Shown here in pieces: positions 5 through 54,945 of a DNA stretch of 64,000 nt. Under the pieces are notes generated by a model. The model did no database searches. It saw nothing but the letters and a program-made list of their open reading frames with translations, and was not told where the DNA came from. The translations under genes and the position numbers were made by a program. Position 1 is the stretch's first letter, and every line of letters starts with the position of its first letter. Origin of the DNA: Bifidobacteriaceae bacterium. Lineage in GTDB: Bacteria; Actinomycetota; Actinomycetes; Actinomycetales; WQXJ01. Location: positions 47,185 to 111,184 of the forward strand of contig JAISSX010000018.1 of the NCBI GenBank assembly GCA_031272885.1, written 5' to 3'.

Positions 5-3000
5 ATGGCCGTCATGGCAGCCGCCTTCCTGGCGGTTGACCTGGGGTTGTTGAAGGCGGAGCTGACCTCTGGCCATGCCCTGGTCTACGGCCTGATGTTC
101 GCGTTGACGCTTGTCTCAGCCGCCGGCCTGACGGCCGGCGGCCGGGCCGTGGGCCTGCGCACCTGGCTATCTTGTGGCCTGGTGGTGGCACCGCTGTCCG
201 CGCTGTGGCTGATCAGCGCCTTCCGTTCACAGCACGCCACGGTGCGGGTGACCATTGCCTGCCTCAGCCTGGTGGCAATTGCGGCCGCCGCCAGACATGT
301 CATCCGGCTGTGGCGTGGGCCAGCGGCGGCGGCCGAAGACCAGGCGTTGGCGGTATGGGCGGCCCTGGCGCTGTTGATTGGGTCGATGGTGGCCCTGAGC
401 GGCACCGTGGCCGCCCTGGGCGCAGAGAGCTTTGAGGCCGCCCAACTGGCCGGACCCCGTTGGCTGGCCCCGGTGGCGTTGGTGGTGGCGGCCGGCCTGG
501 CGCTGGTGGCCGGGGCGCGCTGGCTCCTGGCGTTTGGTGTGGCCGCGGGCGTGCTGCTGACGCTGGCCGCCTATGTCACCGGCGCGGCCGCCCTGGACGC
601 CAGCCCCTCCTGGCCGGGCCTGGCGGGCCTACTGGCCCTGGCCGTGTGGCTGGCGTTAGCCGGCCTCACTCGCTTCGGGGCCGGCCCCGGGGCGGCCCGC
701 CAGGGGCTGGCCATCGGTGGCCTGGCCGGGGCGTTGGTGCTGACCCTGCCGCTTGCGCTGTGGCGCGCCTTCGAGCTGCTGTTCGTGTTCGATGTCCTCG
801 ATACTTTGGATGGCCGCGATGGCTCGCTTAGCGCCTGGCGGGTCATCCTGGGCAACGAGCTGAGCGACTGGACCGCCGTTAACACGGTGGCGTTGATCCT
901 CCCTGCCCTGACCGTGGCCGCCTGCCTCCTACTGCCAGTCCAAGGACGGTTGCTTGCCTGGTTGCACCGTAAGGGCACGGTGGTGCTGCCGGCCGTCGGC
1001 CTGTTCTGCGTTGCCCTGCTGGTAACGATGCCGGGCTGGCCGGCGCTGGCGTCGATGGTGGCATTGGCTGTTGTGACTGCCCTGGCCCTGATGGCCGCCC
1101 GGGCCTTGCTGCGCCATCCGGCCGCCGCGGCGCCGGCCAAGCCGCGACCGGCGGCGGCTGGCCCGGGGCTGCCTGGCCCGCCGCCCGGCTGGCCGCCGGG
1201 CACCTGGCTGGTGGCGGCACCGCCGGTGGGAGTTATTTCGGCGGGTGCCACGGCGCCGTCGGGCAGTACACCGGCTGTAACCGCTCAGGTGGGCAGCGTC
1301 CCGGCGGGTGCCGCGGCGCCATCGGGCAGTACACCGGGCGTAGCCGCTCAGGTGGACAGCGTCCGGGCGGGTGCCGCGGCGCCATCGGGCAGCACACCGG
1401 AAGCTTGGTGGCCCCGGCCGTGGACGTGGGTGCTGCGGTGTTCGGCGCTGGGCTTGCTGCCGCTGTTGTGGCTGATCAGTTGGATGGCCCGGCCGTTGGT
1501 GCCGGTGGGGACCGTGTTGCTGGCCGGCCTGTTGTGGGCGGCCGCGCGCCTGTTCCCCCGCCCGGCCATGGTGGTGGCGGTCGCGGTCGGCTACCCGTTG
1601 GTATTGCAGGCTGCCGGCCTGGCAGCCGTGTGGTACGTGCCGGCGGACTGGTTCGCGGACCCGGAGGGCCTGGTGGCGTTGGGCGGGGTTGGTGCGCTGG
1701 CCTGTCTGGGGGCCGCGGTTCTGAGCCTGTCGCGCTGGCCGCACCGGTGGACCTGGTACCTGGTGTGTGGGCTGAGCCTGGCGCCGGCGGGGTTGGCCAC
1801 CCTGGTGCTGTTCCACAACCGCAACTGGTGGAGCACGGCCGCCGCTTTGGCCGTGACAGTCTTGATGGCCACGGTGGCCGCCACGCCGCGGCGGGCGCTG
1901 CCGGTGGCGCTCCGGGCGGCGGCGGCTGCCCTTGTGCTGCCGGCCGCCGCCATGGGTTTGGCCGGAGTGGGCTCACTGCTGCTGCCCGGTTCGGCTTCGC
2001 CCGTCCTGGTGCCGGTGATTGCGGGCGTGGCGGCCGCGGCGGGGATAGCGGCCACGGCGTTGCAGCCGCGCGCGGTGGCCGTGGCCGGGTTAATCAGTGC
2101 CACCGCGACGGCCTGGGCCAGCGTGGCGGTAGCCGTCGCCTGGCCCCAGACCGACAACGTCACCGTGCTGGTGACGTGCGCCCTTGTGGCGGCCGGTTCC
2201 GCGGCCGTGGGATGGCTACACCAGGCTGGCGCGGGCTGGGCATGGGCCTCGGCCGCGGCCGGTGCGTTGGGTGTGCTGTGGGCCGCCTTGGGGCTGGGGC
2301 AGGTCGACCTGGCCGAGGCCTTCACCGTGCCACCTGCCCTCGCTGCCGTCGCCACCGGCTGGTTCCTGTCGCGTCGGCAGCCGCTCTGGGAGGGCCTGAC
2401 CCTGGCCGGCCTGGGCTTGGGCCTGATCCCTTCCCTGGTCCTGGAGGTAGGCGGCCACGGCCTGGTGCCGCGGGCCTTGGGTCTGACCGTAGCCGCGGCT
2501 CTGCTGCTGGCGGTGGCGGGGTTGGTGCCGGCGGGATCAGGGCCGGTGGGCCGGGTGCCGGTGGGCCGGGTGCCGGTGGGCCCGGCGCCGGCGGGGTCTG
2601 GGCCGGCGGGCCCGGTGCCGGCGGGCCCGGCGCCGGCGGGGTCTGGGCCGGCGGTGCGCCGGCCGTTTGGCATTGGCGCCATCGTCGCCGCGGGCGGGCC
2701 GGCTTGGCTGGGAATTGAACTGGCCAACTGGAGTGGCGACGATTGGGCTCACGGTACCTTCCGGCACCTGCAGGCTTACCCCACCGCCCAGTTCGGCCTG
2801 ATTGTGGCCCTGCTGGCGGCGGCCGGCCTGGCCGTCGCATTGGGGTGCGCAGCCTTGGCACCTTTGACCGGCCGCTGGGGCGATTGGTACCTGGCACCGG
2901 GCCTGGCCGTGGCGGCCTTGGGACCGGTCATCGGCATGCGCTTCACTTGGTGGATCGTGGCCATCACTTGGCTGATCATGGCTGGGCTATTGGCGTTGGG

Positions 3001-3505
3001 CTATATCAGCGCACACCGGCAGGCCGCCGGGCGCGGCGGCCTGCCGCCGTACTGGTTCTGTTGGCCTCTGGCCCTGGCCGTCGGCATCGCCGGTTGGTCC
3101 ACCCGCGAACTGCGGGTGGAGTGCTGGGCCATTCCATTGGGTTTGGCCCTGTTTGCAGCCGGGCATTCGTTGCTGGGCAAGTATCCCGGGCGTCAGGTCT
3201 TCCTGGTGGGTCCTGGCATTGCCGCCACGCTGGGACCGTCCACCCTGGCTGTGGGTACGGACCCCATGACCTGGCGGGCCATCCTGGTGATCGGTCTGGC
3301 CATGGCTGCCATGCTTTACGGCGCCCGGCGCCAGTGGAAGCATGCCCTCGTCATTGCGGCCGCCGCCATGGCCTTGACCTTAATTCTGGTCTTCGTCCGC
3401 CGGTCCGAGATTTCCACCCTGCCCTGGCTGCTGACCCTAGCCTGCGCCGGCGGTATCCTCTTCTCCGTCGCCGTCTGGCTGGAACGCGCCAAGCACCACC
3501 CCTGA
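5..3505 (+). CDS. Very large polytopic integral membrane protein (1166 aa, function unknown); true 5' end could lie upstream of the window
   Basis: Longest ORF, with high GC3 in this frame. The translation is mostly Ala/Leu/Val/Gly/Trp-rich hydrophobic ~20-aa segments (more than 20 putative TM helices). Two Pro/Gly/Ser-rich repeat linkers interrupt them. Overlapping ORFs in other frames are Arg/Pro-rich shadows. Confidence 0.75.
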   Translation: MAVMAAAFLAVDLGLLKAELTSGHALVYGLMFALTLVSAAGLTAGGRAVGLRTWLSCGLVVAPLSALWLISAFRSQHATVRVTIACLSLVAIAAAARHVIRLWRGPAAAAEDQALAVWAALALLIGSMVALSGTVAALGAESFEAAQLAGPRWLAPVALVVAAGLALVAGARWLLAFGVAAGVLLTLAAYVTGAAALDASPSWPGLAGLLALAVWLALAGLTRFGAGPGAARQGLAIGGLAGALVLTLPLALWRAFELLFVFDVLDTLDGRDGSLSAWRVILGNELSDWTAVNTVALILPALTVAACLLLPVQGRLLAWLHRKGTVVLPAVGLFCVALLVTMPGWPALASMVALAVVTALALMAARALLRHPAAAAPAKPRPAAAGPGLPGPPPGWPPGTWLVAAPPVGVISAGATAPSGSTPAVTAQVGSVPAGAAAPSGSTPGVAAQVDSVRAGAAAPSGSTPEAWWPRPWTWVLRCSALGLLPLLWLISWMARPLVPVGTVLLAGLLWAAARLFPRPAMVVAVAVGYPLVLQAAGLAAVWYVPADWFADPEGLVALGGVGALACLGAAVLSLSRWPHRWTWYLVCGLSLAPAGLATLVLFHNRNWWSTAAALAVTVLMATVAATPRRALPVALRAAAAALVLPAAAMGLAGVGSLLLPGSASPVLVPVIAGVAAAAGIAATALQPRAVAVAGLISATATAWASVAVAVAWPQTDNVTVLVTCALVAAGSAAVGWLHQAGAGWAWASAAAGALGVLWAALGLGQVDLAEAFTVPPALAAVATGWFLSRRQPLWEGLTLAGLGLGLIPSLVLEVGGHGLVPRALGLTVAAALLLAVAGLVPAGSGPVGRVPVGRVPVGPAPAGSGPAGPVPAGPAPAGSGPAVRRPFGIGAIVAAGGPAWLGIELANWSGDDWAHGTFRHLQAYPTAQFGLIVALLAAAGLAVALGCAALAPLTGRWGDWYLAPGLAVAALGPVIGMRFTWWIVAITWLIMAGLLALGYISAHRQAAGRGGLPPYWFCWPLALAVGIAGWSTRELRVECWAIPLGLALFAAGHSLLGKYPGRQVFLVGPGIAATLGPSTLAVGTDPMTWRAILVIGLAMAAMLYGARRQWKHALVIAAAAMALTLILVFVRRSEISTLPWLLTLACAGGILFSVAVWLERAKHHP
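1241..1400 (+). repeat. In-frame 63-bp tandem repeat, 2.5 copies, inside the membrane protein gene
   Basis: The unit gcgggtgccgcggcgccatcgggcagtacaccgggcgtagccgctcaggtggacagcgtccgg is repeated at 1241, 1304 and 1367 (the last copy partial) with a few substitutions. It encodes AGA(A/T)APSGSTP(A/G)V(T/A)AQV(G/D)SV(P/R). Confidence 0.9.
2527..2652 (+). repeat. In-frame Pro/Gly/Val-rich short tandem repeats (15-bp and 45-bp periodicity) inside the membrane protein gene
   Basis: ggtgggccgggtgccggtgggccgggtgcc is followed by two copies of ggcccggcgccggcggggtctgggccggcgg. Together they encode GRVPVGRVPVGPAPAGSGPAGPVPAGPAPAGSGPA. Confidence 0.85.
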
Positions 3506-9544: not shown

Positions 9545-9912
9545 CAGCGGACGAGCCCGCCTGTAAGCCGGGTTCTGTCGAGGGCGGCCATCCCTCTAGG
9601 GCCCACGTTGCCGTGGGTCTCAAGCGGCCTACCCGGAAGCTCGGGCGAGCAGCCCTCGGGCGCTTCCTGCATGGCCTTGCTCCGGGTGGGGTTTGCCTAG
9701 CCGCCCGTGTCACCACGGGCGCTGGTGGTCTCTTACACCGCCGTTTCACCCTTACCCGCCACCGCGAAGAACGGCGGCGGGCGGTTTGCTTTCTGTGGCA
9801 CTGTCCCGCGGGTCACCCCGGGTGGGTGTTACCCACCACCCTGCTCTGTGGAGCCCGGACTTTCCTCGGTGGGGGCTAACCCCCAACGCGGCCGCCCGGC
9901 GAGCTCGTCCGG
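9545..9912 (-). ncRNA. rnpB: RNase P RNA (bacterial type A)
   Basis: The minus strand contains the universally conserved GAGGAAAGUCCGGGCUCCA (complement of 9848-9868) and ACAGAACCCGGCUUAC near the 3' end. P1 pairing is CGGACGAGCUCGCC.../...GGGCUCGUCCG. Ends are approximate to +/-5 nt. Confidence 0.9.
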
Positions 9913-17102: not shown

Positions 17103-18323
17103 ATGTCTTTCCAGGCCTTCGACACCGAGACGGCCTCAGTTGTCCCCCTCGCGGCCCCGCCGGACGGCCTGACCCCGGTGGTTGACACACCTGAGGCACT
17201 GGCACGCGCCGTCGCGGCGCTGGCCGCCGGGCAGGGCCCGGTGGCGGCCGATTCGGAACGGGCCAGCGGTTTCCGCTACGGCTCGTATGCCCAATTGGTC
17301 CAGTTGTACCGCCGCGGCACCGGCCTGGTGTTGATCGACGCCGTGGCCCTGCCGCGGCTGGAAACGGTGGCAGCGGCTTTGTCCGGCGCCGAATGGGTCT
17401 TCCACGCCGCCTCCCAGGATCTGCCTTGCCTGCGCGAGGTGGGGCTGAACCCTTCCTTGATTTTCGATACCGAACTGGGCGCCCGCCTGCTCGGTTGGCC
17501 GCAGGTGGGCCTGGCCGGCGTGGTGGCCCGCACCCTTGGGATCGGCCTGGCGAAGCAGTTCTCGGCCCAGGATTGGTCCCGCCGGCCCTTGCCCGAGTCG
17601 TGGCTCAATTACGCCGCCCTTGACGTGGTGTTGCTGTTGGATGTGCGCGACGCCATCGAGGCGGCCCTCGAGGACGCCGGCAAGGCCGACATGGCCCGGG
17701 CCGAGTTCGCGGCCGTCCTGGCGGCCCCTCCCCCGGTGCCGCGGCCGGACCCGTGGCGGCGCACCAGCGGGCTGCACAATGTGCGCGACCAGCGCCAACT
17801 GGCGGTGGTGCGCGAACTGTGGGAGGCCCGGGACGCCTTGGCCCAGCGGATCGACCTGGCACCCGGCAAGGTGTTGCCCGATGCCGCCATCGTGGCCGCC
17901 GCTACCACCTCACCTGCCACCAAGGCGGACTTGGCCAAGATCCACCCGTTCGGCGCCAAGGGCCAGGCCAAGTGGCTGGACCGCTGGTGGGACGCCATCA
18001 ACCGGGCCCGTAACCTGCCTCGGTCCGAACTGCCCAGCAGCCGCGGGCCACGCCACCACACCATTGGCCCGGCGCGGAGCTGGGCCAACCGGCACCCGGA
18101 GGCGTACGCCCGCATGGAGATGGTCAAGGCGGCCACGGCGGCCCTGTCCGAAGAACGGGCCATCCCGGTGGAAAACCTGATGCAGCCCGAACTGCTGCGC
18201 CTGGTGGTGTTCGAGGCCCCGGCCGATGTGCCGGCGGCGATGCTCGCCGCCGGCGCCCGCCCCTGGCAGGTCGAGCTATTGGCCCCAGTGGTGGAGCAGG
18301 CCATCGCCGCCCACCCGGGCTAG
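17103..18323 (+). CDS. RNase D-like 3'-5' exonuclease with HRDC domain
   Basis: DEDD exonuclease motifs (VAADSERAS..., VFHAASQDLPCL, YAALDVVLL). HRDC-like region: RQLAVVRELWEARDALAQRIDLAPGKVLPDAAIV. Confidence 0.85.
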   Translation: MSFQAFDTETASVVPLAAPPDGLTPVVDTPEALARAVAALAAGQGPVAADSERASGFRYGSYAQLVQLYRRGTGLVLIDAVALPRLETVAAALSGAEWVFHAASQDLPCLREVGLNPSLIFDTELGARLLGWPQVGLAGVVARTLGIGLAKQFSAQDWSRRPLPESWLNYAALDVVLLLDVRDAIEAALEDAGKADMARAEFAAVLAAPPPVPRPDPWRRTSGLHNVRDQRQLAVVRELWEARDALAQRIDLAPGKVLPDAAIVAAATTSPATKADLAKIHPFGAKGQAKWLDRWWDAINRARNLPRSELPSSRGPRHHTIGPARSWANRHPEAYARMEMVKAATAALSEERAIPVENLMQPELLRLVVFEAPADVPAAMLAAGARPWQVELLAPVVEQAIAAHPG

Positions 18324-18335
18324 GCGACCGATCAT

Positions 18336-18649
18336 CCCGGGGGTTACAGGGGCTGGTTCCGGGTACTGGGGGTTCCGGGTTACGGGTAACGGGTTACGGG
18401 TTACGGGTTACGGGTAGCGGGTAGCGGGTTACGGGTTACGGGTTACGGGTTACGGGTTACGGGTTACGGGTTACGGGTTACGGGTTACGGGGGTTACTGG
18501 GGACGGTTCCGTGTAACATGGGTGACGCCGTCACCCATGTTACTCGGTACCGTCCCCAGAAACCCCCGCTACCCGGAGCCGTCCCCCGCTACCCGGAGCC
18601 GTCCCCCGCTACACGGAACCGTCCCCAGTAACCCCCGGAACCAGCCGGG
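18336..18649. repeat. Giant imperfect palindrome built from G-rich (left arm) and C-rich (right arm) ~20-bp units plus a heptamer microsatellite; fills the rnd-like/dxs convergent gap
   Basis: The central hairpin at 18499-18557 is ggggacggttccgtgtaacatgggtgacg / ccgtcacccatgttactcggtaccgtcccc (2 mismatches in 29 bp). The right arm holds three or more units of ccgtcccccgctacccggag. The same family recurs at 53264-53551. Confidence 0.9.
18377..18488 (+). repeat. Heptanucleotide microsatellite (GGGTTAC)x16 (13 perfect units, 1 GGGTAAC, 2 GGGTAGC)
   Basis: Counted directly: 16 contiguous 7-bp units over 112 bp. The last nine (18426-18488) are perfect. Confidence 0.95.
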
Positions 18650-20584
18650 CTACGCGACCGGGTGGTCTACCAGCAGGGTGGACTTGACCCGTTCGGCAAT
18701 GGCTTTGGGGGTAAGCCCGGCGCGCTCCGCCAGCGCCTGGCGGGTGGCGTGCGGGAAAAACTCATCCGGCAGGCCGATCGTGATCACCGGCAGGCTGGAA
18801 CCGGCCTCGGCGATCTGCCGCACCAACGCCTCCCCCGCGCCGCCGCGCACGATGCCGTCCTCCACCGTCACCACCAGGTCGTGGCCGGCCGCCAGGCGCA
18901 CCAACGCCGGGTTGACCGGGAAGGCCCAGCGTGGGTCCACCACGGTGGCCTCGATGCCGCTGTCCTCAAGGAGGTGGGCGGCCGCCAGGGCGGTCAGGGC
19001 CTCGGCGCCGTAGCCCACCAACAACACGGCCGGCCCCGACCCGCCGGGTGACCGGGCGGCATCGGGCCTAAGCAGCACATCCAGGCCATCCACCCGCTCG
19101 ATAGCCGGCCGGTCCGAAGGCAGCGAGCCCTTGGGGTAGCGCAGCACGGTGGGGGCGTCATCGACCGCGATGGCCTCCGCCAGCAGTTCACGCAGGGTGG
19201 CGCCGTCACGCGGCGAAGCCAGCCTCAACCCCGGCACCAGGCCGAACAGGGCCATGTCCCATTGGCCGTTGTGGGAGGCGCCATCGGCCCCGGTCAAACC
19301 GGCCCTATCCAGCACAAACGTCACCCCGGCGTGGTGCAGGGCGGCGTCCATCAGCACCTGGTCGAAGGCCCGGTTGAGGAAACTGGCGTAAACCGCCACC
19401 ACGGGGTGGACGCCGGTGAAGGCCAAACCGGCCGCCATGGTGGCGGCGTGGGCCTCGGCGATGCCGACGTCGAAGACACGGTCCGGGAACTCGGCCGCGA
19501 AGGGCACCAAGCCAACCGGTTCCAGCATGGCGGCGGTGATGGCCACCAGGTGCGGGTTGGTGCGGCCCAGGCGGACCAGTTCGTCACCGAACACGGAGGT
19601 CCAGCCGAAGCGGGACGGCTCCAACGGCAGACCCGTCTCCGGGTGGATGCGGCCGACGGCGTGGAAGCGGTCCAGGCCGTGGCTTTCGGCCGGCACGTAG
19701 CCGCGGCCCTTTTCGGTGATGACGTGCACCAACACCGGGCCGGAATAGGCCTTGGCCTGGCGCAGGGCGCGTTCCACGGCGGCCTCATCGTGGCCATCCA
19801 CCGTACCGATGTACTTCAAGCCCAGGTCTTCGAACATGATCTGGGGCGCCACCACGTCCTTGATGCCCTTCTTCAGGCCGTGCAGGGCGCCGTAGACCAG
19901 GCGGCCCAGGCGGCCATGGGCTTGCAGGGTGCGTTTGCCCCAGGTCAGGATCTTCTCGTAGTGCGGCGTGGTGCGCAGGCCGTTCAGGTGCGCCGCCAGG
20001 CCGCCGATGGTGGGCGCGTAGGACCGGCCGTTGTCGTTCACCACGATGACCAGGCGGCCCTGGTGTTCGGCCGCGATGTGGTTCAGGGCCTCCCAGCTCA
20101 TGCCGCCGGTCAACGCGCCATCGCCCACCACCACCACGGTGTAGCGCTCCGGCTGGCCGGTCAACCGCCGGCCCGCCGTTATACCAGCCGCCCAGGACAA
20201 ACCCGCCGAGGCGTGCGTGTTCTCCACCACGTCATGGGCCGATTCGGCCCGGCTGGGGTAGCCCGACAGGCCGCCCTCTTCACGCAGGTGGGAGAAGTCC
20301 TGGCGGCCGGTCAGCAACTTGTGGACATAGGCCTGGTGGCCGGTGTCGAAGACGATGGTGTCCTGCGGCGAATCGAAGACGCGGTGCAGGGCGATGGTCA
20401 ACTCCACCACGCCCAGGTTGGGGCCCAGGTGGCCGCCGGTCTTGGAGACGGCGTCCACCAGAAACGCCCGGATGTCCGCCGCCAACGGTTCAAGCTGGTC
20501 GGCCGGCAGGCGCTTCAGATCACGCAGGCCACGCACCTGGGCCAGGGTGGCCCCGGGCTTTGCCTCAGGGGGCTTAGTTGTCAC
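18650..20584 (-). CDS. dxs: 1-deoxy-D-xylulose-5-phosphate synthase
   Basis: [45 protein letters not shown], the TPP motif [15 protein letters not shown], 644 aa. Confidence 0.96.
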
Positions 20585-24340: not shown

Positions 24341-24655
24341 TCAGGCGGAGGCCTTCAGGTCGGCCCGCAGGGCATCGATGGGTGAAGCATCCAGGTTAAG
24401 CCGCATCCCGATGGCGCGAGCGTATTCCTGCAGCGTCTGAACAGTGGGGTTGCCGCCCGTGCGTTCGAGCCGCGACACGGCTGACTGGGTGGTGCCCATG
24501 GTCCTGGCCACATCGCACTGGGTGATCCCCAGAGCCTTGCGGCGGGCCACGAGTTTCAGGATCAGATTCCCCAGGTTGTCGAAGTCCTCCCTGGCTGCAG
24601 TGATTCGAGGGTCGCCCGGGTCATAGCCCGCCAGGGAAGCAAAGGTGAAACTCAT
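24341..24655 (-). CDS. XRE-family HTH antitoxin (HigA-like)
   Basis: RKALGITQCDVARTMGTTQSAVSRLERTGGNPTVQTLQEYARAIG is a Cro/C1-type HTH. There is a 4-bp ATGA overlap with the upstream toxin gene. Confidence 0.8.
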   Translation of the reverse strand: MSFTFASLAGYDPGDPRITAAREDFDNLGNLILKLVARRKALGITQCDVARTMGTTQSAVSRLERTGGNPTVQTLQEYARAIGMRLNLDASPIDALRADLKASA

Positions 24656-25065
24656 CGGATTCCTCCATCGTCCCGGTCAGTATCACATATAAGAGATAGC
24701 CGAGGCAAGGCGGACACAATCTCGCGGTGAACCTTTAGCCTCGCTACGGCCGTCTCGAACACGGACGGCGGCAGCTTCCCAGACTTCTTCGGCGTGAACA
24801 GCAGCGCCAGCAGCACCGGCCTGGTTCCGGCCTCCTCGACATACAGCAGCCTGAACAACCGGTCCCGAGTCTTGAGCCTCGCCTCCAACAGCGGATACCC
24901 CTGGATGTGGGCAACATCCGCCGCGGTGGCCTCACCCCATGCGATGCGATCCTTCAGTGAATCAAGGCCGGCGGCTTCCCGCGGGGTCAGCTTGGCCCGC
25001 TCGACATCGCGTTCAACTGGCGAGACAGCCCCGTGCCCTCGCACCAACTGCCATCGTTTCACCAA
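24652..25065 (-). CDS. RelE/ParE-superfamily toxin, Gp49/HigB-like
   Basis: HIQGYPLLEARLKTRDRLFRLLYVEE...VLLALLFTPKKSGKLPPSVFETAVARLK matches the Gp49/HigB pattern (ELR...R.LY...L.aF.KK....P..e...A..R). The toxin-upstream-of-XRE-antitoxin order is typical of higBA. Confidence 0.7.
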   Translation of the reverse strand: MVKRWQLVRGHGAVSPVERDVERAKLTPREAAGLDSLKDRIAWGEATAADVAHIQGYPLLEARLKTRDRLFRLLYVEEAGTRPVLLALLFTPKKSGKLPPSVFETAVARLKVHREIVSALPRLSLICDTDRDDGGIR

Positions 25066-25179
25066 CTCAGGCTAGGGAACCTCAGGCCACCCACCAACCC
25101 CTCCTCTCCCCCAGCCAAATCCCCTGTTCAACGGCCTCAGTCCGATGGCGCCCGGCTACGGTCGCCGTGGCGTCTACGG

Positions 25180-26226
25180 TTAGAGGCCATAGCCATATGG
25201 GTCGGGGTCCTGATGCAGAATGACAGTTAGGTTGTCGGGATCGGACAGGTCGACTATGGCACTCCGGACCCAAGCGTGGCCGCAGTATTCGCCGGCCGAA
25301 TCCGTGCAGGTGGCCCCAACGCCCCCGGGCAGGTTGGAAGCCCAAACCCTTGTTGTCCCCAATGCTGGCTTGAACTCCCATTGGCTCGGGTCACCTTCAG
25401 TGACGGCCCAACTGCCGTCGCCTTCCCTAGACACCCTGAAGCCGCACTTAGCCAGAGCATCAGATCCCAGTTCAAGACATTCCTCCACCTTGTCCTCGGC
25501 CGCCGCGACCGCGGCAGCCTGGGCGGCTTCGGTCACGATAATGGACGGTTGTTGGCTGGCGTCATCCTGGACCATTATTTTGGTGCCATAGGCATAAATC
25601 ACTCCCGGCCCAGTGCGGCCAAACACGATGTAGGGGCTATCCCCGGTGTCATAGGCCACCAGGGGATTGCCGGTGTCGAACTGGTAGCCGCCGGGGAAGG
25701 CCCACACGCTAACCTCGCCGGCCAGGTCACCCACTCCGTTGACGGTCACGGTGGGATAGCCAGAAACGATCGGCGGCAAGTAGATCCCGCCCAAACTATG
25801 TATCGGCCAGATCAACCACTGGCCGAAGCGCCATTCCAGTCCGATGTTTGCCTCGACCGGCTGCCCGCCCACCGTGTAGGTGACCGTGCCGAAGGTGCGG
25901 TCCATGGAGGCGTAGTTGTCATAGTCCGGTATTTCCACGTCCGAAACGGGCGCCAGGCGTTGCGCCTCCTGTAACACGGCATCCGTCAACAGACCCCTCG
26001 CGTCAGGGCCTAAGGGCTCAAGACAACCAAGGGCGGCCGCGGCATCGCCGGCTTGAATGGCCTCGAAGTAGCGGGCCACCACCTCTTCGGGGGTGGCGCC
26101 ATCGTGCTCAGGCGGCGCGTCGTCCGATGTCGAGCTGCAGGCGGCGGCGCCCGCGGTAATCGAAGCAACCAAGACGAACGCGCCCGCGGCGGTGGCCAGG
26201 CGCTTGGCTAGGGACTGATCATTCAT
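25180..26226 (-). CDS. Secreted lipoprotein, paralog A (NTF2-like/DUF4878-like N-terminal domain, Cys-containing C-terminal domain)
   Basis: Signal peptide with lipobox MNDQSLAKRLATAAGAFVLVASITAGAAAC. PEEVVARYFEAIQAGDAAAA is typical of DUF4878-like lipoproteins. The ATG at 26226 is conserved in the paralog; the longest ORF starts at a TTG at 26271. Confidence 0.75.
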   Translation of the reverse strand: MNDQSLAKRLATAAGAFVLVASITAGAAACSSTSDDAPPEHDGATPEEVVARYFEAIQAGDAAAALGCLEPLGPDARGLLTDAVLQEAQRLAPVSDVEIPDYDNYASMDRTFGTVTYTVGGQPVEANIGLEWRFGQWLIWPIHSLGGIYLPPIVSGYPTVTVNGVGDLAGEVSVWAFPGGYQFDTGNPLVAYDTGDSPYIVFGRTGPGVIYAYGTKIMVQDDASQQPSIIVTEAAQAAAVAAAEDKVEECLELGSDALAKCGFRVSREGDGSWAVTEGDPSQWEFKPALGTTRVWASNLPGGVGATCTDSAGEYCGHAWVRSAIVDLSDPDNLTVILHQDPDPYGYGL

Positions 26227-26311
26227 AAACCGGAGGCTATCTGCCTTCGGATCGCCGCGCGATGGGGACAACTCCCCACCGAGCGGGCGACGATCGCCGT
26301 GGCGCCTGGGG

Positions 26312-27343
26312 TTAGAAGCCCTGCAGTTGGGAGTAGGTACCCAGAATGACGGTGAGGTTGTCGGGATCGGACAGGGCGATCGTCGCTATCATGACCGAAG
26401 CCTTGCCGCAGTATTCGCCCGCCGCATCCGTGCAGGTGACCATAATGCCGGTCGGGTTGGAAGCCCAAATCCCTAGCACCGACGCTGCCTGAATCTCCCA
26501 TTGGCTCGGGTCACCTTCGGTAATAGCCCAAGTGCCGTCGCCTTCCATGGTCAGGTGAAAGCCGCAGCTAGCCAGGGCATCAGATCCCAGTTCAACACAT
26601 TCCTCCACCTTGTCCTCGACCGCCGCGGCCACGGCAGCCTGGCCGGCTTCGGTCACGATAATGGACGGTTGTTGGCTGGCCTCAACCGGCCCCATCAAGG
26701 CGCCTCCGGCATCAACCAATCCCAGTACAGATCCGGCAAACACAACGTAGGGGCCATCTGCGGTGTTATAGGCCACCAGGGGGTTGCCGGTGTCGAACTG
26801 GTAGCCGCCGGGGAAAGTCGGCACGGTCTCCTTGCCGGCCAGGTCACCCACTCCGTTAACTTCGGCGGCGGGAGAGCCCTGAACGATATTCCCCAAGTCG
26901 ACCTGGTTCAAGGCTGACTCCGGGTAGATCAGCCACTGGTTAGATTGCCATTGCAGTGCAATCCACGCGTTGACCCGCTGCCCGCCCACCGTGTAGGTGA
27001 CGGTGCCGTTGGTGGCGTTCCAGGTGGCGTAGTTGGGATAGTCATCGGCTACTTCCACGTCCGAAACGGGCGCCAGGCGCTGCGCCTCCTGCAACACGGC
27101 ATCCGTCAACAGAGTCTCGTCAAGGCTGGTGGGCGCGAGGCAGCCAAGGGCAGCCGCGGCATCACCGGCTTGAATGGCCTCGAAGTAGCGGGCCACCACC
27201 TCTTCGGGAGTGGCGCCATCGTGCTCAGGCGGCGCGTCGTCCGATGTCGAACTGCAGGCGATGGCGCCTGCGGTAGTCGAAGCAACCAAGACGAACGCGC
27301 CCACAGCGGTGGCCAGGCGCTTGGCTAGAGACTGATCATTCAT
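26312..27343 (-). CDS. Secreted lipoprotein, paralog B (tandem duplicate of 25180-26226)
   Basis: The N-terminal ~70 aa are nearly identical to paralog A, including the lipobox (TAGAIAC). The remainder alternates identical and divergent blocks. Confidence 0.75.
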   Translation of the reverse strand: MNDQSLAKRLATAVGAFVLVASTTAGAIACSSTSDDAPPEHDGATPEEVVARYFEAIQAGDAAAALGCLAPTSLDETLLTDAVLQEAQRLAPVSDVEVADDYPNYATWNATNGTVTYTVGGQRVNAWIALQWQSNQWLIYPESALNQVDLGNIVQGSPAAEVNGVGDLAGKETVPTFPGGYQFDTGNPLVAYNTADGPYVVFAGSVLGLVDAGGALMGPVEASQQPSIIVTEAGQAAVAAAVEDKVEECVELGSDALASCGFHLTMEGDGTWAITEGDPSQWEIQAASVLGIWASNPTGIMVTCTDAAGEYCGKASVMIATIALSDPDNLTVILGTYSQLQGF

Positions 27344-27417
27344 AAACCGGAGGCTATCTGCCTCCAGATCGTCGTGCGATGGGGACAACTCCCCACCGAG
27401 CCGCCATCAGCCTCGGC

Positions 27418-27627
27418 TCAATCCTGCGTCAGCCGGGCGACCTCTTCGAGGGGGGTGTCGAAAACGGCGGCAACGTCCTCCAGTGCGAGGCCCTGAGCCA
27501 CCGCCCGGCGAATGCTGTCCTCCGAGCCTGTTCGGCGCGGGCAGGTCCGACACCTGTGACACACTCCCCGTATGGGATTCTTCGCCAACCAGATGGGTAA
27601 CAACTCTCCGGCGGCCGGGCACAGCAA
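27418..27627 (-). CDS. Possible small Cys-rich/HTH protein (weak call; TTG start assumed)
   Basis: The C-terminal SEDSIRRAVAQGLALEDVAAVFDTPLEEVARLTQD looks like an HTH, preceded by CHRCRTC. Only moderate GC3, a rare TTA codon and no ATG/GTG start. The longer 194-aa ORF overlaps the opposite-strand HicB-like gene. Confidence 0.3.
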   Translation of the reverse strand: MLCPAAGELLPIWLAKNPIRGVCHRCRTCPRRTGSEDSIRRAVAQGLALEDVAAVFDTPLEEVARLTQD

Positions 27628-27699
27628 CTGGGTAGCGACCGGCGCCCCACCTGGTGGACTGACCGGCAGACAGATCATCAAGGACCTGGAGGAGTTGAG

Positions 27700-28074
27700 G
27701 TGAACATCACAGCCGTAGCAACCTGGACCGAGGGCTGGTGGGCCATCGAGATTCCAGAGGTGCCCCACGTCTATTCGCAAGCCCGCACCCTCGACCGCGT
27801 GGCCGGCATGGCCCTGGATGCCGTCTCGCTGCACACCGGCCGGCCACAGGCAGACTTCGCCGTGAGAGTGGATCCACGCCTGAGCCCGGAAGAGGAAGCC
27901 GCCATGGCTCGGGCAACAGCCGCCAAACAGGCTGCGTCGGAGACGGCGCGGGCCGCCTCGGTCGCCAACCGGGCCGCCGCCGACACTCTGCACGCCAAGC
28001 ACTCCACCCGGGACGTGGCCTACTTAATGGGGATCACCACTCAGCGCGTATCCCGGCTGCTAAGCCCCGTGTGA
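27700..28074 (+). CDS. HicB-like antitoxin-fold protein with C-terminal HTH
   Basis: GGAGGAG ribosome-binding site, then GTG. N-terminus TAVATWTEGWWAIEIPEVPHVYSQARTLDRVAGMALDAV resembles the HicB N-terminal domain. C-terminus STRDVAYLMGITTQRVSRLL is an HTH. Confidence 0.6.
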   Translation: MNITAVATWTEGWWAIEIPEVPHVYSQARTLDRVAGMALDAVSLHTGRPQADFAVRVDPRLSPEEEAAMARATAAKQAASETARAASVANRAAADTLHAKHSTRDVAYLMGITTQRVSRLLSPV

Positions 28075-28215
28075 CAACGGGCCGAACCTGTCCCATCGCA
28101 CGGGACCAGGAAAGCCAACCAGCAGCGATCCGGCTTCTAGGCCGGGGCGCCATCGGGCAGGTGTGTTTTGCTCACGTGGGGAAAAGACTGCCCGCCCAAC
28201 CAGGGGGCTACTGTG

Positions 28216-28289
28216 TGGGCCAGGTGGGGCTTGAACCCACGACCGGCGGATTATGAGTCCGCTGCTCTGACCGGCTGAGCTACTGGCCC
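28216..28289 (-). tRNA. tRNA-Met (anticodon CAU; elongator type, or possibly tRNA-Ile2 if lysidine-modified)
   Basis: The minus strand GGGCCAGTAGCTCAGCCGGTCAGAGCAGCGGACTCATAATCCGCCGGTCGTGGGTTCAAGCCCCACCTGGCCCA folds as a cloverleaf. The 1-72 pair is G1-C72 and the anticodon stem lacks the 3xGC run, so it is not an initiator. CCA is not encoded. Confidence 0.9.
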
Positions 28290-28319: not shown

Positions 28320-28392
28320 CTCCCGCCACTGGACTCGAACCAGTAACCCTCTGATTAACAGTCAGATGCTCTGCCGATTGAGCTAGGCGGGA
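28320..28392 (-). tRNA. tRNA-Asn (anticodon GUU)
   Basis: The minus strand TCCCGCCTAGCTCAATCGGCAGAGCATCTGACTGTTAATCAGAGGGTTACTGGTTCGAGTCCAGTGGCGGGAG folds as a cloverleaf, with anticodon loop CTGTTAA. Confidence 0.92.
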
Positions 28393-52442: not shown

Positions 52443-53177
52443 TTGGTGGGCACGATCATCGGCTTGAGCATTGGCGCGATAGTGGTTGCGTCCATGGCCG
52501 CCTTCTTTGTCCGCGCCGTCCAGGCGGGCCGCGCCGCCAAGATCGCCGCCACCACCGACTCGGCCGCCGCGGCCGAAAGCCTGACCGAAGACGTCCACAA
52601 CTCAGGCGAGGCCGAAGACCTGTTCGGGAACGTCCTGCTGTGGGGCAGAGACCCCACGGGGGACTGGGACACTACCTGGTCACAACAAGTCGACGAGGAT
52701 GGCCACGAAATCTATTCTAGGGACGACGTCGTCCACCTGCCGGAAAACTCGGATGACCTGGAACTGGAGCAGCCCTTCGCCGCTTTCCTGGTCGACATCC
52801 CCCACGAAGTCGAAGTAGAGGACGGCGAACAGGCCATCGAGATGGCCGAAGCCATCTTCACCGCTGGCGTGCGCGAAGAGTCCGCCCAGTTCGAGAACCT
52901 GGCCACCGCCGCTGTTGTCTACCGGAACATCACGGGCTGCTCCCTTTACTATGGCGAGTTCCAGAGAACCCACTGCCGGCAGGAAGCCACCATCTTCTAT
53001 TTCAACCTGGCCTATGAAGAGGTGATCGGTGTCGACTACTTCAAGGGCGAAGAACTGCCGGACTTGGTGGCCGCCGACCGGAAGACCGGCCCTTGGGAAG
53101 TGACCAACAAAGACCTGATCGAACACTGGCAGGACCGCCTGGGCATCGACCCTTCCACCGCCAGCCCCACCAAGTAG
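52443..53177 (+). CDS. Membrane-anchored acidic protein of unknown function (TTG/GTG start uncertain)
   Basis: N-terminal TM segment VGTIIGLSIGAIVVASMAAFFV followed by a ~200-aa Asp/Glu-rich domain. Composition is not shadow-like. Confidence 0.55.
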   Translation: MVGTIIGLSIGAIVVASMAAFFVRAVQAGRAAKIAATTDSAAAAESLTEDVHNSGEAEDLFGNVLLWGRDPTGDWDTTWSQQVDEDGHEIYSRDDVVHLPENSDDLELEQPFAAFLVDIPHEVEVEDGEQAIEMAEAIFTAGVREESAQFENLATAAVVYRNITGCSLYYGEFQRTHCRQEATIFYFNLAYEEVIGVDYFKGEELPDLVAADRKTGPWEVTNKDLIEHWQDRLGIDPSTASPTK

Positions 53178-53263
53178 GCAACGACCCTACCCGATGGCGT
53201 CCGGTCGCCAACCGGCAGGCAACCACGCGGCATCGGGCACCGCAGTCCGACCCGGGTCCCTTC

Positions 53264-53551
53264 GGGGGACGGTTCCGAGGTTACAGGGGACGGTTCCGGG
53301 GTTACAGGGGACGGTTCCGCGGAACGGGGTTGCGGGGGGGTACAGGGGACGGTTCCGAGGTTACAGGGGACAGTTCCGAGGTTACAGGGGACGGTTCCGG
53401 GTTACAGGGGACGGTTCCGGGTTACAGGGGACGGTTCCGTGTAACATCAGAGATGTTACACGGAACCGTCCCCTGTAACCCCCGCCACCTCAGCGCCGTC
53501 CCCTGTAACCCCGGAACCGTCCCCGGTAACCCCGGAACCGTCCCCTGTGAC
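53264..53551. repeat. Second giant palindromic repeat array: 8 tandem 20-21-bp (one 38-bp) G-rich units, a perfect 27-bp-stem central hairpin, and a shorter C-rich complementary arm
   Basis: Units GGGGACGGTTCCG(A/G)GGTTACA start at 53265, 53286, 53307, 53345, 53366, 53387, 53407 and 53427. The hairpin is gttacaggggacggttccgtgtaacat-cagag-atgttacacggaaccgtcccctgtaac (53421-53479). Confidence 0.92.
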
Positions 53552-53558
53552 AGACCGA

Positions 53559-54872
53559 TCAGGTGTCAGGCATCTGGCCGGACAGGAACTCGGTGTAGGC
53601 CGGCAGGTCAAGCTGACCGGAACCGGACACGCCGATCACGATGACGGGGCTCTCCCCCGCCTCGGTGGCCGCCCGCACCTGGCGCAGGGCACCGGCGATG
53701 GCGTGGTTGGACTCGGACGCGGGGATGATGCCTTCGGCGCGGGCGAACAACACGCCGGCCTCAAAGGCCTCGCGCTGCTTGACCGAGATGGCGCTCAGCA
53801 GCCCCTCATGGTAGGCGTGCGACACCAGCGGCGCCATGCCGTGATAGCGCAGGCCGCCGGCGTGCACCGGGTCCGGCACGAAGTCCTGCCCGAGGGTGTA
53901 CATCTTCAGCTTGGGGGTCATGCCGACGGTGTCGCCGAAGTCGTACTTGAACTCGCCTTCGGTCAGCGACGGCGCCGCCTTGGGCTCGCAGGCCACGATC
54001 TGGACGTGCTGGCGGCCTTCCAGGTTCTCGCGGATGAACGGGAACGAGATGCCGCCCAGGTTGGAGCCGCCACCGGCACAGGCGAACAAGTAGTCAACCG
54101 CCGGCTCTTCGAAGACAGCCAGTTGCTTCAGCACTTCCTGCCCGATGACGGTCTGGTGCAACAGCACGTGGTTCAGCACGGAGCCCAGCGAGTAGGAGGC
54201 GTTGGGGTCCTTGGCCGCTTCTTCGATGGCTTCCGAAATGGCCATGCCCAGCGAACCGGACGTGTCCGGGAACTTCAACCGCAGTTGGCGGCCCACCTCG
54301 GTCAGTTCCGATGGCGACCCAACGGCTTTGGCGCCGAACACGGCCATCTGGGCCGAACGGTACGGCTTGCCTTCAAACGAGGAACGCACCTGCCAGATGT
54401 CGCACTCCAGGCCGAACACCTCGGCCGCAAAGGCGAGGGCGGCGCCCCACTGGCCGGCGCCGGTTTCGGTGGTCAGCCGGGTGCGGCCGGCGATCTTGTT
54501 GAAGTAGGCCTGCGGCACGGACGAGTTGGCCTTGTGTGAACCGACCGGCGAGGCGCCCTCGTACTTGTAGTAGATGCGCGCTTTGGTGCCCAGGGCCTGC
54601 TCCAGGCGATACGCCCGGTAGAGCGGCGAGGGCCGCCACAGGCGGTAGATCTCACGGACGGCCTGGGGGATCTCGATCCAACGCTCGGCCGAGGCTTCCT
54701 GTTCGATCAGGCCCATGGGGAACAACGCGGTCAGATCGTCTGGCACCAGGGGTTCACCGGTGGCCGGGTGCAACGGCGGGGCCGGCGGAGTGGGAAAGTC
54801 AGGCACGATGTTGTACCAGTGGGTGGGGATCTCGTCTTCACCCAGTACGGCTTTGTACAGGTCTCTTGGCAT
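53559..54872 (-). CDS. TrpB2-type (TrpB-like) PLP-dependent tryptophan synthase beta-chain homolog, stand-alone
   Basis: N-terminus MPRDLYKAVLGEDEIPTHWYNIVPDFPTPPAPPLHPATGEPL is characteristic of the TrpB2 subfamily. The PLP-Lys context is YKYEGASPVGSHKANS; GGGSN is also present. No trpA or other trp genes are nearby. Confidence 0.85.
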   Translation of the reverse strand: MPRDLYKAVLGEDEIPTHWYNIVPDFPTPPAPPLHPATGEPLVPDDLTALFPMGLIEQEASAERWIEIPQAVREIYRLWRPSPLYRAYRLEQALGTKARIYYKYEGASPVGSHKANSSVPQAYFNKIAGRTRLTTETGAGQWGAALAFAAEVFGLECDIWQVRSSFEGKPYRSAQMAVFGAKAVGSPSELTEVGRQLRLKFPDTSGSLGMAISEAIEEAAKDPNASYSLGSVLNHVLLHQTVIGQEVLKQLAVFEEPAVDYLFACAGGGSNLGGISFPFIRENLEGRQHVQIVACEPKAAPSLTEGEFKYDFGDTVGMTPKLKMYTLGQDFVPDPVHAGGLRYHGMAPLVSHAYHEGLLSAISVKQREAFEAGVLFARAEGIIPASESNHAIAGALRQVRAATEAGESPVIVIGVSGSGQLDLPAYTEFLSGQMPDT

Positions 54873-54945
54873 GTCAAGCTCTCTCTTGAGGCGGCAGGAT
54901 TGGCACCATCCTATCGGCCCGGCCACAGGCGCCGGACCAATTCAT

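Follow-up and report, generated by a model that had tools for sequence, protein, structure and literature searches.

What occupies the space between the convergent genes rnd and dxs in a Bifidobacteriaceae bacterium, and how did it come to be there? The question is raised by a 64,000-nt stretch of contig JAISSX010000018.1, referred to here as the window, in which 326 bp separate the end of the rnd-like stop codon (18323) from the first base of the dxs stop codon (18650). A first-pass annotation described this gap as a giant imperfect palindrome, and as a description of the sequence this stands. The gap is nearly filled by repeats, as the sequence and the open reading frame (ORF) coordinates bear out. 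The G-rich left arm degenerates into a heptamer microsatellite, the central 59-bp hairpin has a palindromic middle (GGGTGACGCCGTCACCC), and the C-rich right arm is built on a 20-nt unit, CCCCCGCTACCCGGAGCCGT, found 3.2 times at 18563-18626 by Tandem Repeats Finder (TRF), that is the complement of the core-bearing unit of the left-arm family. What does not stand is the notion of a single giant palindromic device. The rnd/dxs palindrome is the by-product of two head-to-head half-elements, one behind each convergent gene and each tied to a gene 3' end, and the most probable explanation for their presence is that they are two copies of a small interspersed hairpin repeat that is, or was formerly, mobile.

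Anatomy of the repeat and its hairpin

The building block of the repeat is about 21 nt long and consists of a 7-9-mer, termed A (GGTTACA here), followed by the invariant core GGGGACGGTTC(C/T), of which GGGGACGGTTC makes up 11 bases. A half-element comprises n such blocks, n x (A + core), closed by A', the reverse complement of A. Parsed on the G-rich strand, the internal units of all arrays read A-core-CG-A-core repeatedly, and after the last core come C/T-T/C and A'. The terminal unit is thus a hairpin, with A and A' forming the stem and the core, together with two further nucleotides, a 13-nt loop. Covariation supports this A-core-A' hairpin. Across 90 distinct, unselected terminal units, 64% of the cells of an 8-bp stem are paired compared to 45% after shuffling (0/500 shuffles reach the observed value), the covariation score is 0.47 compared to 0.20, and both sides change in all 8 stem pairs. 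Shifting the stem register by 1-3 columns leaves 34-47% paired. Five or more stem pairs are available to 57 of 124 terminal units compared to only 11 of 125 internal units. G:U pairs are confined to the G strand, a weak hint that this is the folding strand. A covariance model, R1, was built from the same hairpin and provides the scores given below.

The features of the rnd/dxs gap (locus 1) and of a second, related locus are collected in Table 1. The rnd-like product is 100% identical to an HRDC protein named 'MAG: Bifidobacteriaceae bacterium'. The two half-elements of locus 1 meet in a central inverted repeat with 52-nt arms (18476-18527 and 18529-18580, 87% complementary, 1-nt spacer) identified by a repeat finder, and the right half-element, whose G-rich strand is the sense strand of dxs, gives two R1 matches on the minus strand (18605-18635, 28.0 bits; 18536-18566, 18.9 bits). 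The whole locus is bracketed by two copies of a 20-bp direct repeat that match at 18 of 20 positions, a level reached by 0 of 2000 random window pairs; each copy contains the stop codon of one gene, and the left copy, read on the minus strand, would encode the dxs C-terminus as well. Folded as RNA, locus 1 reaches -200.4 kcal/mol (z = -7.5 compared to shuffles). At its very centre, GTGACGCCGTCAC (18524-18536) fits by eye the enterobacterial matS consensus GTGACRNYGTCAC, a likeness judged to be coincidence: it is missing from locus 2, no MatP would be expected in this lineage, and the flanking 7-9-mers vary between lineages.

The microsatellite of the left arm is the window's own 7-mer, GGTTACA, which also precedes the core in the units of locus 2, repeated without the core as a local slippage product of this one arm. 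It begins 46 nt past the rnd stop codon, with (GGGTTAC)17 on the sense strand fitting a G3N4 G-quadruplex pattern. A run-away of the same type is seen in another locus (L069, 150-420), where the 7-mer alone (ATGGTTCT) is multiplied beside core units. An assembly artefact is an unlikely source of locus 1, since an independent short-read (Logan) assembly of the same strain reproduces its left edge and breaks inside the heptamer run; the contigs concerned halt within or just before the repeat (L001 at base 3035, L002 at 36 nt past the dxs stop). As the arrays fragment short-read assemblies in this manner, their frequency in metagenome-assembled genomes (MAGs) is probably undercounted.

The core recurs at a second convergent junction 35 kb away, as had been claimed. 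The 21-mer GGGGACGGTTCCGTGTAACAT is found exactly at 53427-53447 (+) and 53453-53473 (-), within locus 2, which fills the gap between a convergent ORF (52443-53177, +) and a PALP-domain gene (53559-54926, -). With up to 3 mismatches this 21-mer gives 7 matches, and none in any dinucleotide shuffle. The left half-element of locus 2 begins 88 nt past the stop of the upstream ORF, and the right half-element, with 2.5 complementary units by TRF, ends 14 nt short of the stop of the PALP gene. Locus 2 is the cleaner of the two, and its predicted RNA fold is lower in energy than that of locus 1 (-258.4 kcal/mol, z = -14.2); both loci are far more stable than their shuffles. Within the window, the same core and build occur at these two loci only, which hold all ten R1 matches and occupy 2 of the 6 convergent junctions. 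Two ORFs cross the arrays (18522-19013 and 53093-53644), and a coding explanation was rejected, the arrays being palindromic and outside the set of coding-like ORFs with high GC3.

Table 1. Positions of the two repeat loci and their flanking genes in the window
Feature	Coordinates	Strand	Details
rnd, RNase D-like	17103..18323	+	Pfam DNA_pol_A_exo1, HRDC and DNA_pol_A_exoN; stop TAG 18321-18323
Locus 1, 20-bp direct repeat, left copy CCACCCGGGCTAGGCGACCG	18311..18330		holds rnd stop codon
Locus 1, left half-element, outer degenerate units GGGGGTTACAGGGGCTGGTTCCGGGTACTGGGGGTTCC	18336..18369	+	GGGG..GGTTCC type; pairs with 18603-18638 (36 nt, 83%)
Locus 1, heptamer microsatellite (GGGTTAC)x17.4	18370..18491	+	TRF period 7, 93% matches
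Locus 1, left half-element, terminal unit GGGTTACT-GGGGACGGTTCCG-TGTAACAT	18490..18520	+	7-mer/anti-7-mer stem, core as loop; R1 32.1 bits, E 3.6e-6
Locus 1, central 59-bp hairpin	18499..18557		meeting point of both half-elements; inside the 52-nt-arm inverted repeat
Locus 1, inner palindrome GGGTGACGCCGTCACCC	18520-18536		centre of the hairpin
Locus 1, right half-element, four units	18536..18635	-	cores 18545-18557, 18574-18586, 18594-18606, 18614-18626
Locus 1, 20-bp direct repeat, right copy CCAGCCGGGCTACGCGACCG	18641..18660		holds dxs stop codon
dxs	18650..20584	-	Pfam DXP_synthase_N, Transket_pyr and Transketolase_C; stop codon 18650-18652
Locus 2, left half-element, eight cores	53256..53448	+	~21-nt units GGTTACA + GGGGACGGTTCCG(A/G); TRF period 21, 8.6 copies; R1 17-34 bits
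Locus 2, centre	53427..53473		perfect 21-bp arms GGGGACGGTTCCGTGTAACAT / ATGTTACACGGAACCGTCCCC, 5-nt loop
Locus 2, right half-element, three cores	53452..53548	-	cores 53461-53473, 53512-53524, 53533-53545

Distribution, placement at gene ends, gain and loss

The repeat is not confined to the two window loci. A scan of species-representative genomes, one per species, with the exact double-core pattern GGGGACGGTTCCG-N7-8-GGGGACGG returned 64 loci, of which roughly 50 share the same build (tandem ~21-nt units with a terminal A' or an inverted partner arm) and a dozen or so are lone matches in coding DNA of Streptomyces and others. As the first-pass annotation had suspected, the core identifies a family of repeats found time and again at gene ends, and both core and build occur in MAGs and isolates labelled Actinomycetota, Bacillota, Bacteroidota and Pseudomonadota, with a stem that differs per lineage. 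Among the actinobacterial carriers, which also include Propionibacteriales-labelled records, A is GGGCCACC or GGGACCACC in the 'Actinomycetes' MAG OH_SFB_96 (at least 25 contigs) and in Propionicimonas, CCGGTTCA in Micropruina, including the isolate Micropruina glycogenica JCM 10248, and GAGACGGT in a termite-gut Micrococcales MAG. In Lachnospiraceae, Acutalibacteraceae, Mogibacterium, Lutispora and Clostridiaceae (GC 0.37-0.53) it is GACAGACA, GGAGACA, GGGACAAT, TTGTCAAC and similar; these low-GC copies are not actinobacterial contamination, since their contigs are AT-rich right up to the element. In a Bacteroidales MAG, A is GCCAAA or GCCATT, and relatives of this contig carry genes for a TonB-dependent receptor and an extracytoplasmic function (ECF) sigma factor.

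One further locus sequence, with CGCGAAAA as A, is filed under two MAGs, labelled Rhodocyclaceae and Geminicoccaceae, and under a viral contig (L028, L051, L068). The three are identical in sequence, element included, and the explanation is either a conflict in binning or a mobile or prophage region common to all of them. Viral contigs otherwise hold the element rarely (3 and 10 loci by two patterns, one locus in common). A contig from IMG/VR (L067, 249-4300; GC 0.55) bears six near-identical full hairpins, one behind each gene of a prophage lysis module (DUF2612, NlpC/P60 + PG_binding, holin, SH3), with related copies in L074, L075, L078 and L082; its reading as an integron cassette array, suggested by a hairpin after each short gene, was rejected in favour of the lysis module. 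BLAST of locus 2 against 72,556 plasmids gave no match, and the metagenome scans were uninformative: the exact locus 1 flank was not found, and a window-specific 20-mer gave two chance matches, both within a coding repeat. A different array that shares the core occurs in a MAG labelled delta proteobacterium (L035, 586-913), where nine GGGGCGATC-GGGGACGGTTCGAACTTCCGTCAC-GCG.. copies alternate in 40/41-nt spacing and the GACGG of the core forms a T-arm-like hairpin with a CCGTC further downstream, the loop between them containing TTCGAA. A parS half-site in one Lachnospiraceae copy and the likeness of the core to tRNA T-arms, tmRNA 5' ends and rRNA were both set aside as by-eye coincidences, the flanking 7-9-mers varying between lineages.

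The arrays are biased towards gene ends and the sense strand. By a crude, uniform ORF caller, approximately 36 of 70 arrays start between -25 and +150 nt from a co-oriented stop codon. Arrays without an inverted partner are sense-only to the nearest gene end in 15 cases and antisense-only in 3 (binomial p = 0.0075, the count including a few orthologous duplicates), with a median gap of ~10 nt from stop codon to unit. The first unit often begins right at the stop codon, as in TGA followed by GGGACCACC, TAG by TGCCATT or TAA by TGGGACACC. Where genes converge, one half-element belongs to each gene, its G-rich strand being the sense strand of that gene, and the palindrome arises from the two together, as at both window loci; the order of arms within an element is always '+ then -', with the G strands inward, the sole exception being the compound element L042. 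Convergent junctions are not the only location of the family: elsewhere it lies behind single genes and is tolerated even in frame inside genes. Outside the window, long coding-like ORFs contain in-frame arrays, 21 nt being 7 codons, which Pfam domains place as follows: GPPGTVP x4 separates the N-terminal from the C-terminal domain of a GH3 enzyme, and GDGS-type heptads lie between the first two domains (I and II) of a phosphomannomutase (PGM/PMM), within the domain span of a FAD_binding_2 protein and at the C-terminal end of an IleRS. In another locus (L063) an array appears by eye to be read on the opposite strand near a protein N-terminus.

Related genomes reveal gain and loss of the element. 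Among the related sequences, which are metagenome contigs and MAGs, the closest one found (rnd 74% identical) has 4 bp between rnd and dxs (TAGGCGCCTAGG); in a second (rnd 65% identical) they are 87 bp apart without a core, and in a third the synteny differs. No match to the core or to R1 occurs in 57 kb of sequence from these relatives. At the rnd/dxs junction of the closest relative (L070, 4125-4145), both stop codons lie inside a tandem duplication, TAGGCGCC-TAGGCGCC, without an insert, which could be an independent event or a footprint. Downstream of rnd in another relative (L072, 11270-11320), two direct tandem copies of GCTGTTTGGCTAATAGAAGTTCG immediately precede an AAA_14/DUF4143 gene, which takes the place of dxs.

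A Bacteroidales lineage provides clean filled and empty sites. Beside an FtsX permease gene that is 84-88% identical among the assemblies compared, five assemblies are empty (TAG followed by TG(C/T)CAAAAAATTAGACG), three have a 73-bp hairpin with one unit per arm and 24-26-bp inverted ends exactly after the stop codon, and the reference MAG has two units per arm; the change from one unit to two affected both arms at once. The flanking duplication is 0-4 nt, and the empty target (TGCCAAA) resembles the 7-mer of the element (GCCAAA). A second copy, whose inner sequence is the same, occurs in the reference MAG alone; it lies between genes which in one relative (L085) share a TAATG overlap. Copies can also be long-lived, as two Propionicimonas-like genomes of ~90% nucleotide identity retain the same array sites and unit numbers with several substitutions.

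Origin of the palindrome and rival explanations

In the explanation favoured here, the element would have inserted where rnd and dxs abutted or overlapped. The ancestral genes probably overlapped in CTAG, given that the left direct-repeat copy would also encode the dxs C-terminus. Insertion would have duplicated ~20 bp, such that both genes kept their ends, and the arms would then have been altered by gain and loss of units, with the left-arm 7-mer running away by slippage to (GGGTTAC)17. Arrays may grow through duplication of units or through re-insertion into existing copies. Like the GT(A/G)G head of repetitive extragenic palindromic (REP) sequences, the invariant core could be the recognition site of a mobilising enzyme, and the choice of target may depend on pairing or matching with the stem, as suggested by the empty Bacteroidales site. 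An invariant short motif joined to a freely co-varying stem would mark the action of a structure-specific nucleic-acid enzyme, or of a binding protein, by which the core is read. Copies may persist at 3' ends because they are tolerated there. REPs are known to block exonucleolytic decay as 3' hairpins, and in an analogous way the half-elements probably act as very stable 3'-end hairpins that halt transcription arriving from the opposite gene as well as 3'->5' decay.

Several points weigh against this explanation. The target-site duplication is inconsistent: it measures 20 bp at locus 1 and 0-4 nt in Bacteroidales, and is missing at locus 2, where no direct repeat of 12 nt or more was found. 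It thus gives no clean fit to known transposition chemistry. No mobilising gene is found among the window's 46 coding-like ORFs, all of which are housekeeping or without a Pfam match, and an all-against-all comparison of ORFs near elements from different phyla (~80 loci) yielded only ABC ATPases and orthologous neighbours as shared families. The source genome is represented by the two loci of the 64-kb window, and no second strain was found. The double-core seed partly imposes the invariance of the core, and the taxon names are those on the MAG records. The tight stop-codon spacing and the sense bias are as well explained by tolerance alone as by function, and a terminator role is conjecture given that no T-tail follows the hairpins.

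A broader, more tentative possibility, to which we give rather less than even credence, is that the core GGGGACGGTTC marks a single undescribed mobile system that crosses Actinomycetota, Bacillota, Bacteroidota and Pseudomonadota. A dedicated enzyme, perhaps an HUH nuclease, a reverse transcriptase or another type, would read the core presented in the loop, the stem would pick targets, copies would be set down in sense orientation right behind stop codons, and arrays would form by self-insertion. If true, this would be a new class of partnership between repeat and enzyme, similar to that of REPs and the REP-associated tyrosine transposases (RAYTs) but with wider hosts and another architecture.

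A REP/RAYT system proper is the first of the rivals to be considered, and an unlikely one. A domesticated HUH (Y1) transposase, with a single gene in each genome, would act on the hairpins as single-stranded DNA. It would recognise or cut at the core, and the 7-9-mer would pair with a target or guide as in IS200/IS605. The combination of a short motif conserved across lineages with a lineage-specific, co-varying stem is indeed REP logic (PMC2817692), most sites are without a clear target duplication, the likeness of the empty Bacteroidales target to the element 7-mer fits target choice by base pairing, and the restriction of G:U pairs to the G strand suggests a single folding strand. However, no Y1_Tnp or other transposase is found among the 46 window ORFs searched or beside elements elsewhere, the conserved part is the hairpin loop and not a 5' head, and the units are direct rather than alternating. 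No autonomous parent that shares the ends of the element and encodes a transposase was found in the fetched loci, no dedicated collection search having been made. One candidate of RAYT-like arrangement, a gene between inverted arrays in L022/L036, was rejected by eye, without a domain search, as a housekeeping AIRC/LarB-like gene.

A phased array of binding sites for a nucleoid, partition or fork-barrier protein acting on double-stranded DNA, with 21 bp as two helical turns and the palindrome as a polar barrier in both directions, is very unlikely, although a fork barrier and a protein array were among the roles proposed in the first-pass annotation. The invariant 11-13-bp motif is regularly spaced at 20-21 bp in all lineages, and the polarity of the arms points inward. 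Against this, many copies have only one or two units, the spacing is simply the sum of 8 and 13 nt, the co-variation of A and A' would be needless for binding to a duplex, the copies in coding regions and in the prophage lysis module are hard to reconcile with it, and there is no candidate protein.

A local origin, in which an immobile bidirectional terminator or insulator evolved in place and the two loci came to resemble one another through selection for the same RNA structure, is highly improbable and, as an origin story, already largely refuted. Both window copies do lie at convergent junctions, the hairpins are highly stable on both strands, and in some low-GC genomes (L009, L061) a T run stands behind the terminal hairpin. 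Yet an identical 11-13-nt core is present across unrelated genomes and phyla, the same junction exists in relatives without the element, sites are found both filled and empty with the same element at two of them, and copies occur in frame within genes. The window loci moreover have no T tail: a search for sites of a terminator-like hairpin with a T-tail gave 0 at 18200-18800 and 53100-53700 on either strand, which agrees with the earlier claim that the palindrome is something beyond an intrinsic terminator.

It is very unlikely that the gap is, as also proposed in the first-pass annotation, a contingency (hypervariable) locus or a G-quadruplex/cruciform switch, here tuning rnd or dxs by repeat number, for which speak the G3N4 fit of the heptamer run, the similarly placed GGGNATC heptamers of Xanthomonas and Nostoc that form quadruplexes in vitro (PMC4692102) and the difference between one and two units per arm in related Bacteroidales genomes, since the run occurs in this arm alone, G runs in most lineages are 20 nt apart, a poor quadruplex geometry that also excludes the quadruplex as a common denominator, the orthologous Propionicimonas-like arrays keep their unit numbers, and the repeat lies behind genes and not before or within them.

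The same 11-13-nt core in termite-gut and sludge actinobacteria, in rumen clostridia and in Bacteroidales, with a stem retuned in every lineage, points to a conserved recognition partner that has yet to be named, for which an A-core-A' hairpin such as GGGCCACC-GGGGACGGTTCCT-GGTGGCCC is a precise bait. The placement at stop codons and the in-frame heptads make the repeat a tractable case for the study of safe landing sites of selfish DNA and of added linker peptides. The arrays also make long false ORFs, which may mislead gene callers applied to MAGs.

A few further features were noted elsewhere in the window. A bacterial RNase P RNA of class A lies at 9548-9907 (-; 315.6 bits), and a 1166-codon coding-like ORF without a Pfam match (5-3505, +) runs off the window start and bears internal tandem repeats with periods of 63 nt (1239-1400) and 15 nt (2515-2654). 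The stretch 24650-28100 has a GC content of 0.64 compared to ~0.69, with an HTH_3 gene (24341-24655) at one end and two minus-strand tRNA genes (28216-28289 and 28320-28392) at the other. Its long ORFs (25180-26271, 26312-27388 and 27418-28002, all minus, and others) have no Pfam match, and the stretch may be a small integrated element or a set of novel genes.

Comparison with known repeat systems

No described family accounts for the repeat in the sources searched. Neither locus matches Rfam at gathering thresholds, only sub-threshold matches to generic long hairpins (microRNA precursors) appear with E up to 10, and no description of the core was found by sequence strings and keywords in a non-exhaustive literature collection. 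A CRISPR array, with repeats of 24-48 nt and unique spacers, is rejected on unit size and structure, as had been stated from the outset; the units here are 20-21 nt, the 'spacer' of 7-9 nt is itself repeated, and the arrays are inverted about a centre. A bidirectional intrinsic terminator is one palindrome common to two convergent transcripts, and the likeness extends to the position at convergent genes and to the T run of some low-GC members. The repeat differs in the absence of a T tail in the window, in its size (~300 compared to ~40 bp), in its conserved repeated units and in its mobility.

The GGGNATC heptamers of Xanthomonas and Nostoc likewise lie on the sense strand no more than 50 bp from stop codons, and they form quadruplexes (PMC4692102; Rehm et al. 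2015). As tandem, quadruplex-prone, G-rich heptamers of up to ~26 units they resemble the left arm of locus 1. The heptamer here is GGGTTAC, however, and its run, seen at 18370-18491 alone, is the local degeneration of one arm of a larger element and not a family of its own across the genome.

The repeat also has parallels among mobile palindromic elements. Rickettsia palindromic elements (RPEs) insert in frame in protein genes and are tolerated as extra peptide segments, much as the palindromic repeat is found in frame within the GH3, PGM/PMM, IleRS and FAD protein genes; RPEs are, however, 100-150 bp long, limited to Rickettsia and without tandem 21-nt units. Miniature inverted-repeat transposable elements (MITEs), exemplified by the Correia elements of Neisseria, SMAG of Stenotrophomonas and RUP/BOX, are likewise small and non-coding with terminal inverted repeats, as in the Actinomycetes MAG, where the element ends GGGACCACC...GGTGGTCCC, and in the window loci of ~300 bp. 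They share with the repeat the polymorphism of presence and absence, identical copies at different sites, co-transcription with neighbour genes and folding into long hairpins. Unlike MITEs, the repeat has no consistent target-site duplication and no parent insertion sequence was found for it; it is built of modular ~21-nt units in varying number, its outer ends are variable and its inner core invariant, and it has a strong sense-strand bias to the upstream gene.

A close resemblance is also to the REPs, with their composite forms, bacterial interspersed mosaic elements (BIMEs) and REPINs, and with RAYTs, in E. coli, Pseudomonas and Stenotrophomonas. These are short GC-rich hairpin repeats without coding capacity, present in many copies per genome and in composite clusters, mostly past gene ends or between convergent genes. 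They also combine a short motif conserved between species with a species-specific, co-varying stem, and their palindromes stand at multiple sites, as does the repeat at two loci in 64 kb here and on at least 25 contigs of OH_SFB_96. The differences lie in the parts by which such systems are defined. A REP consists of a GT(A/G)G head at its 5' end and a palindrome, and no RAYT homologues are reported from other major bacterial lineages (PMC2817692), compared to an invariant GGGGACGGTTC placed between the stem arms and 7-9-mers without a common GTAG. BIMEs alternate their REPs, whereas the units here are direct with one orientation switch per element, apart from L042. The claim that the repeat is of no known MITE or REP type therefore stands insofar as it fails the specific definitions of both, and falls insofar as it is, with its filled and empty sites, a repeat of the REP/BIME/MITE kind. 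No RAYT was found here, and the core is common to several phyla. Interspersed palindromic repeats such as REPs and MITEs are normally specific to a species or genus, and a single core shared across phyla with lineage-specific stems is, as far as we are aware, an unusual and undescribed property.

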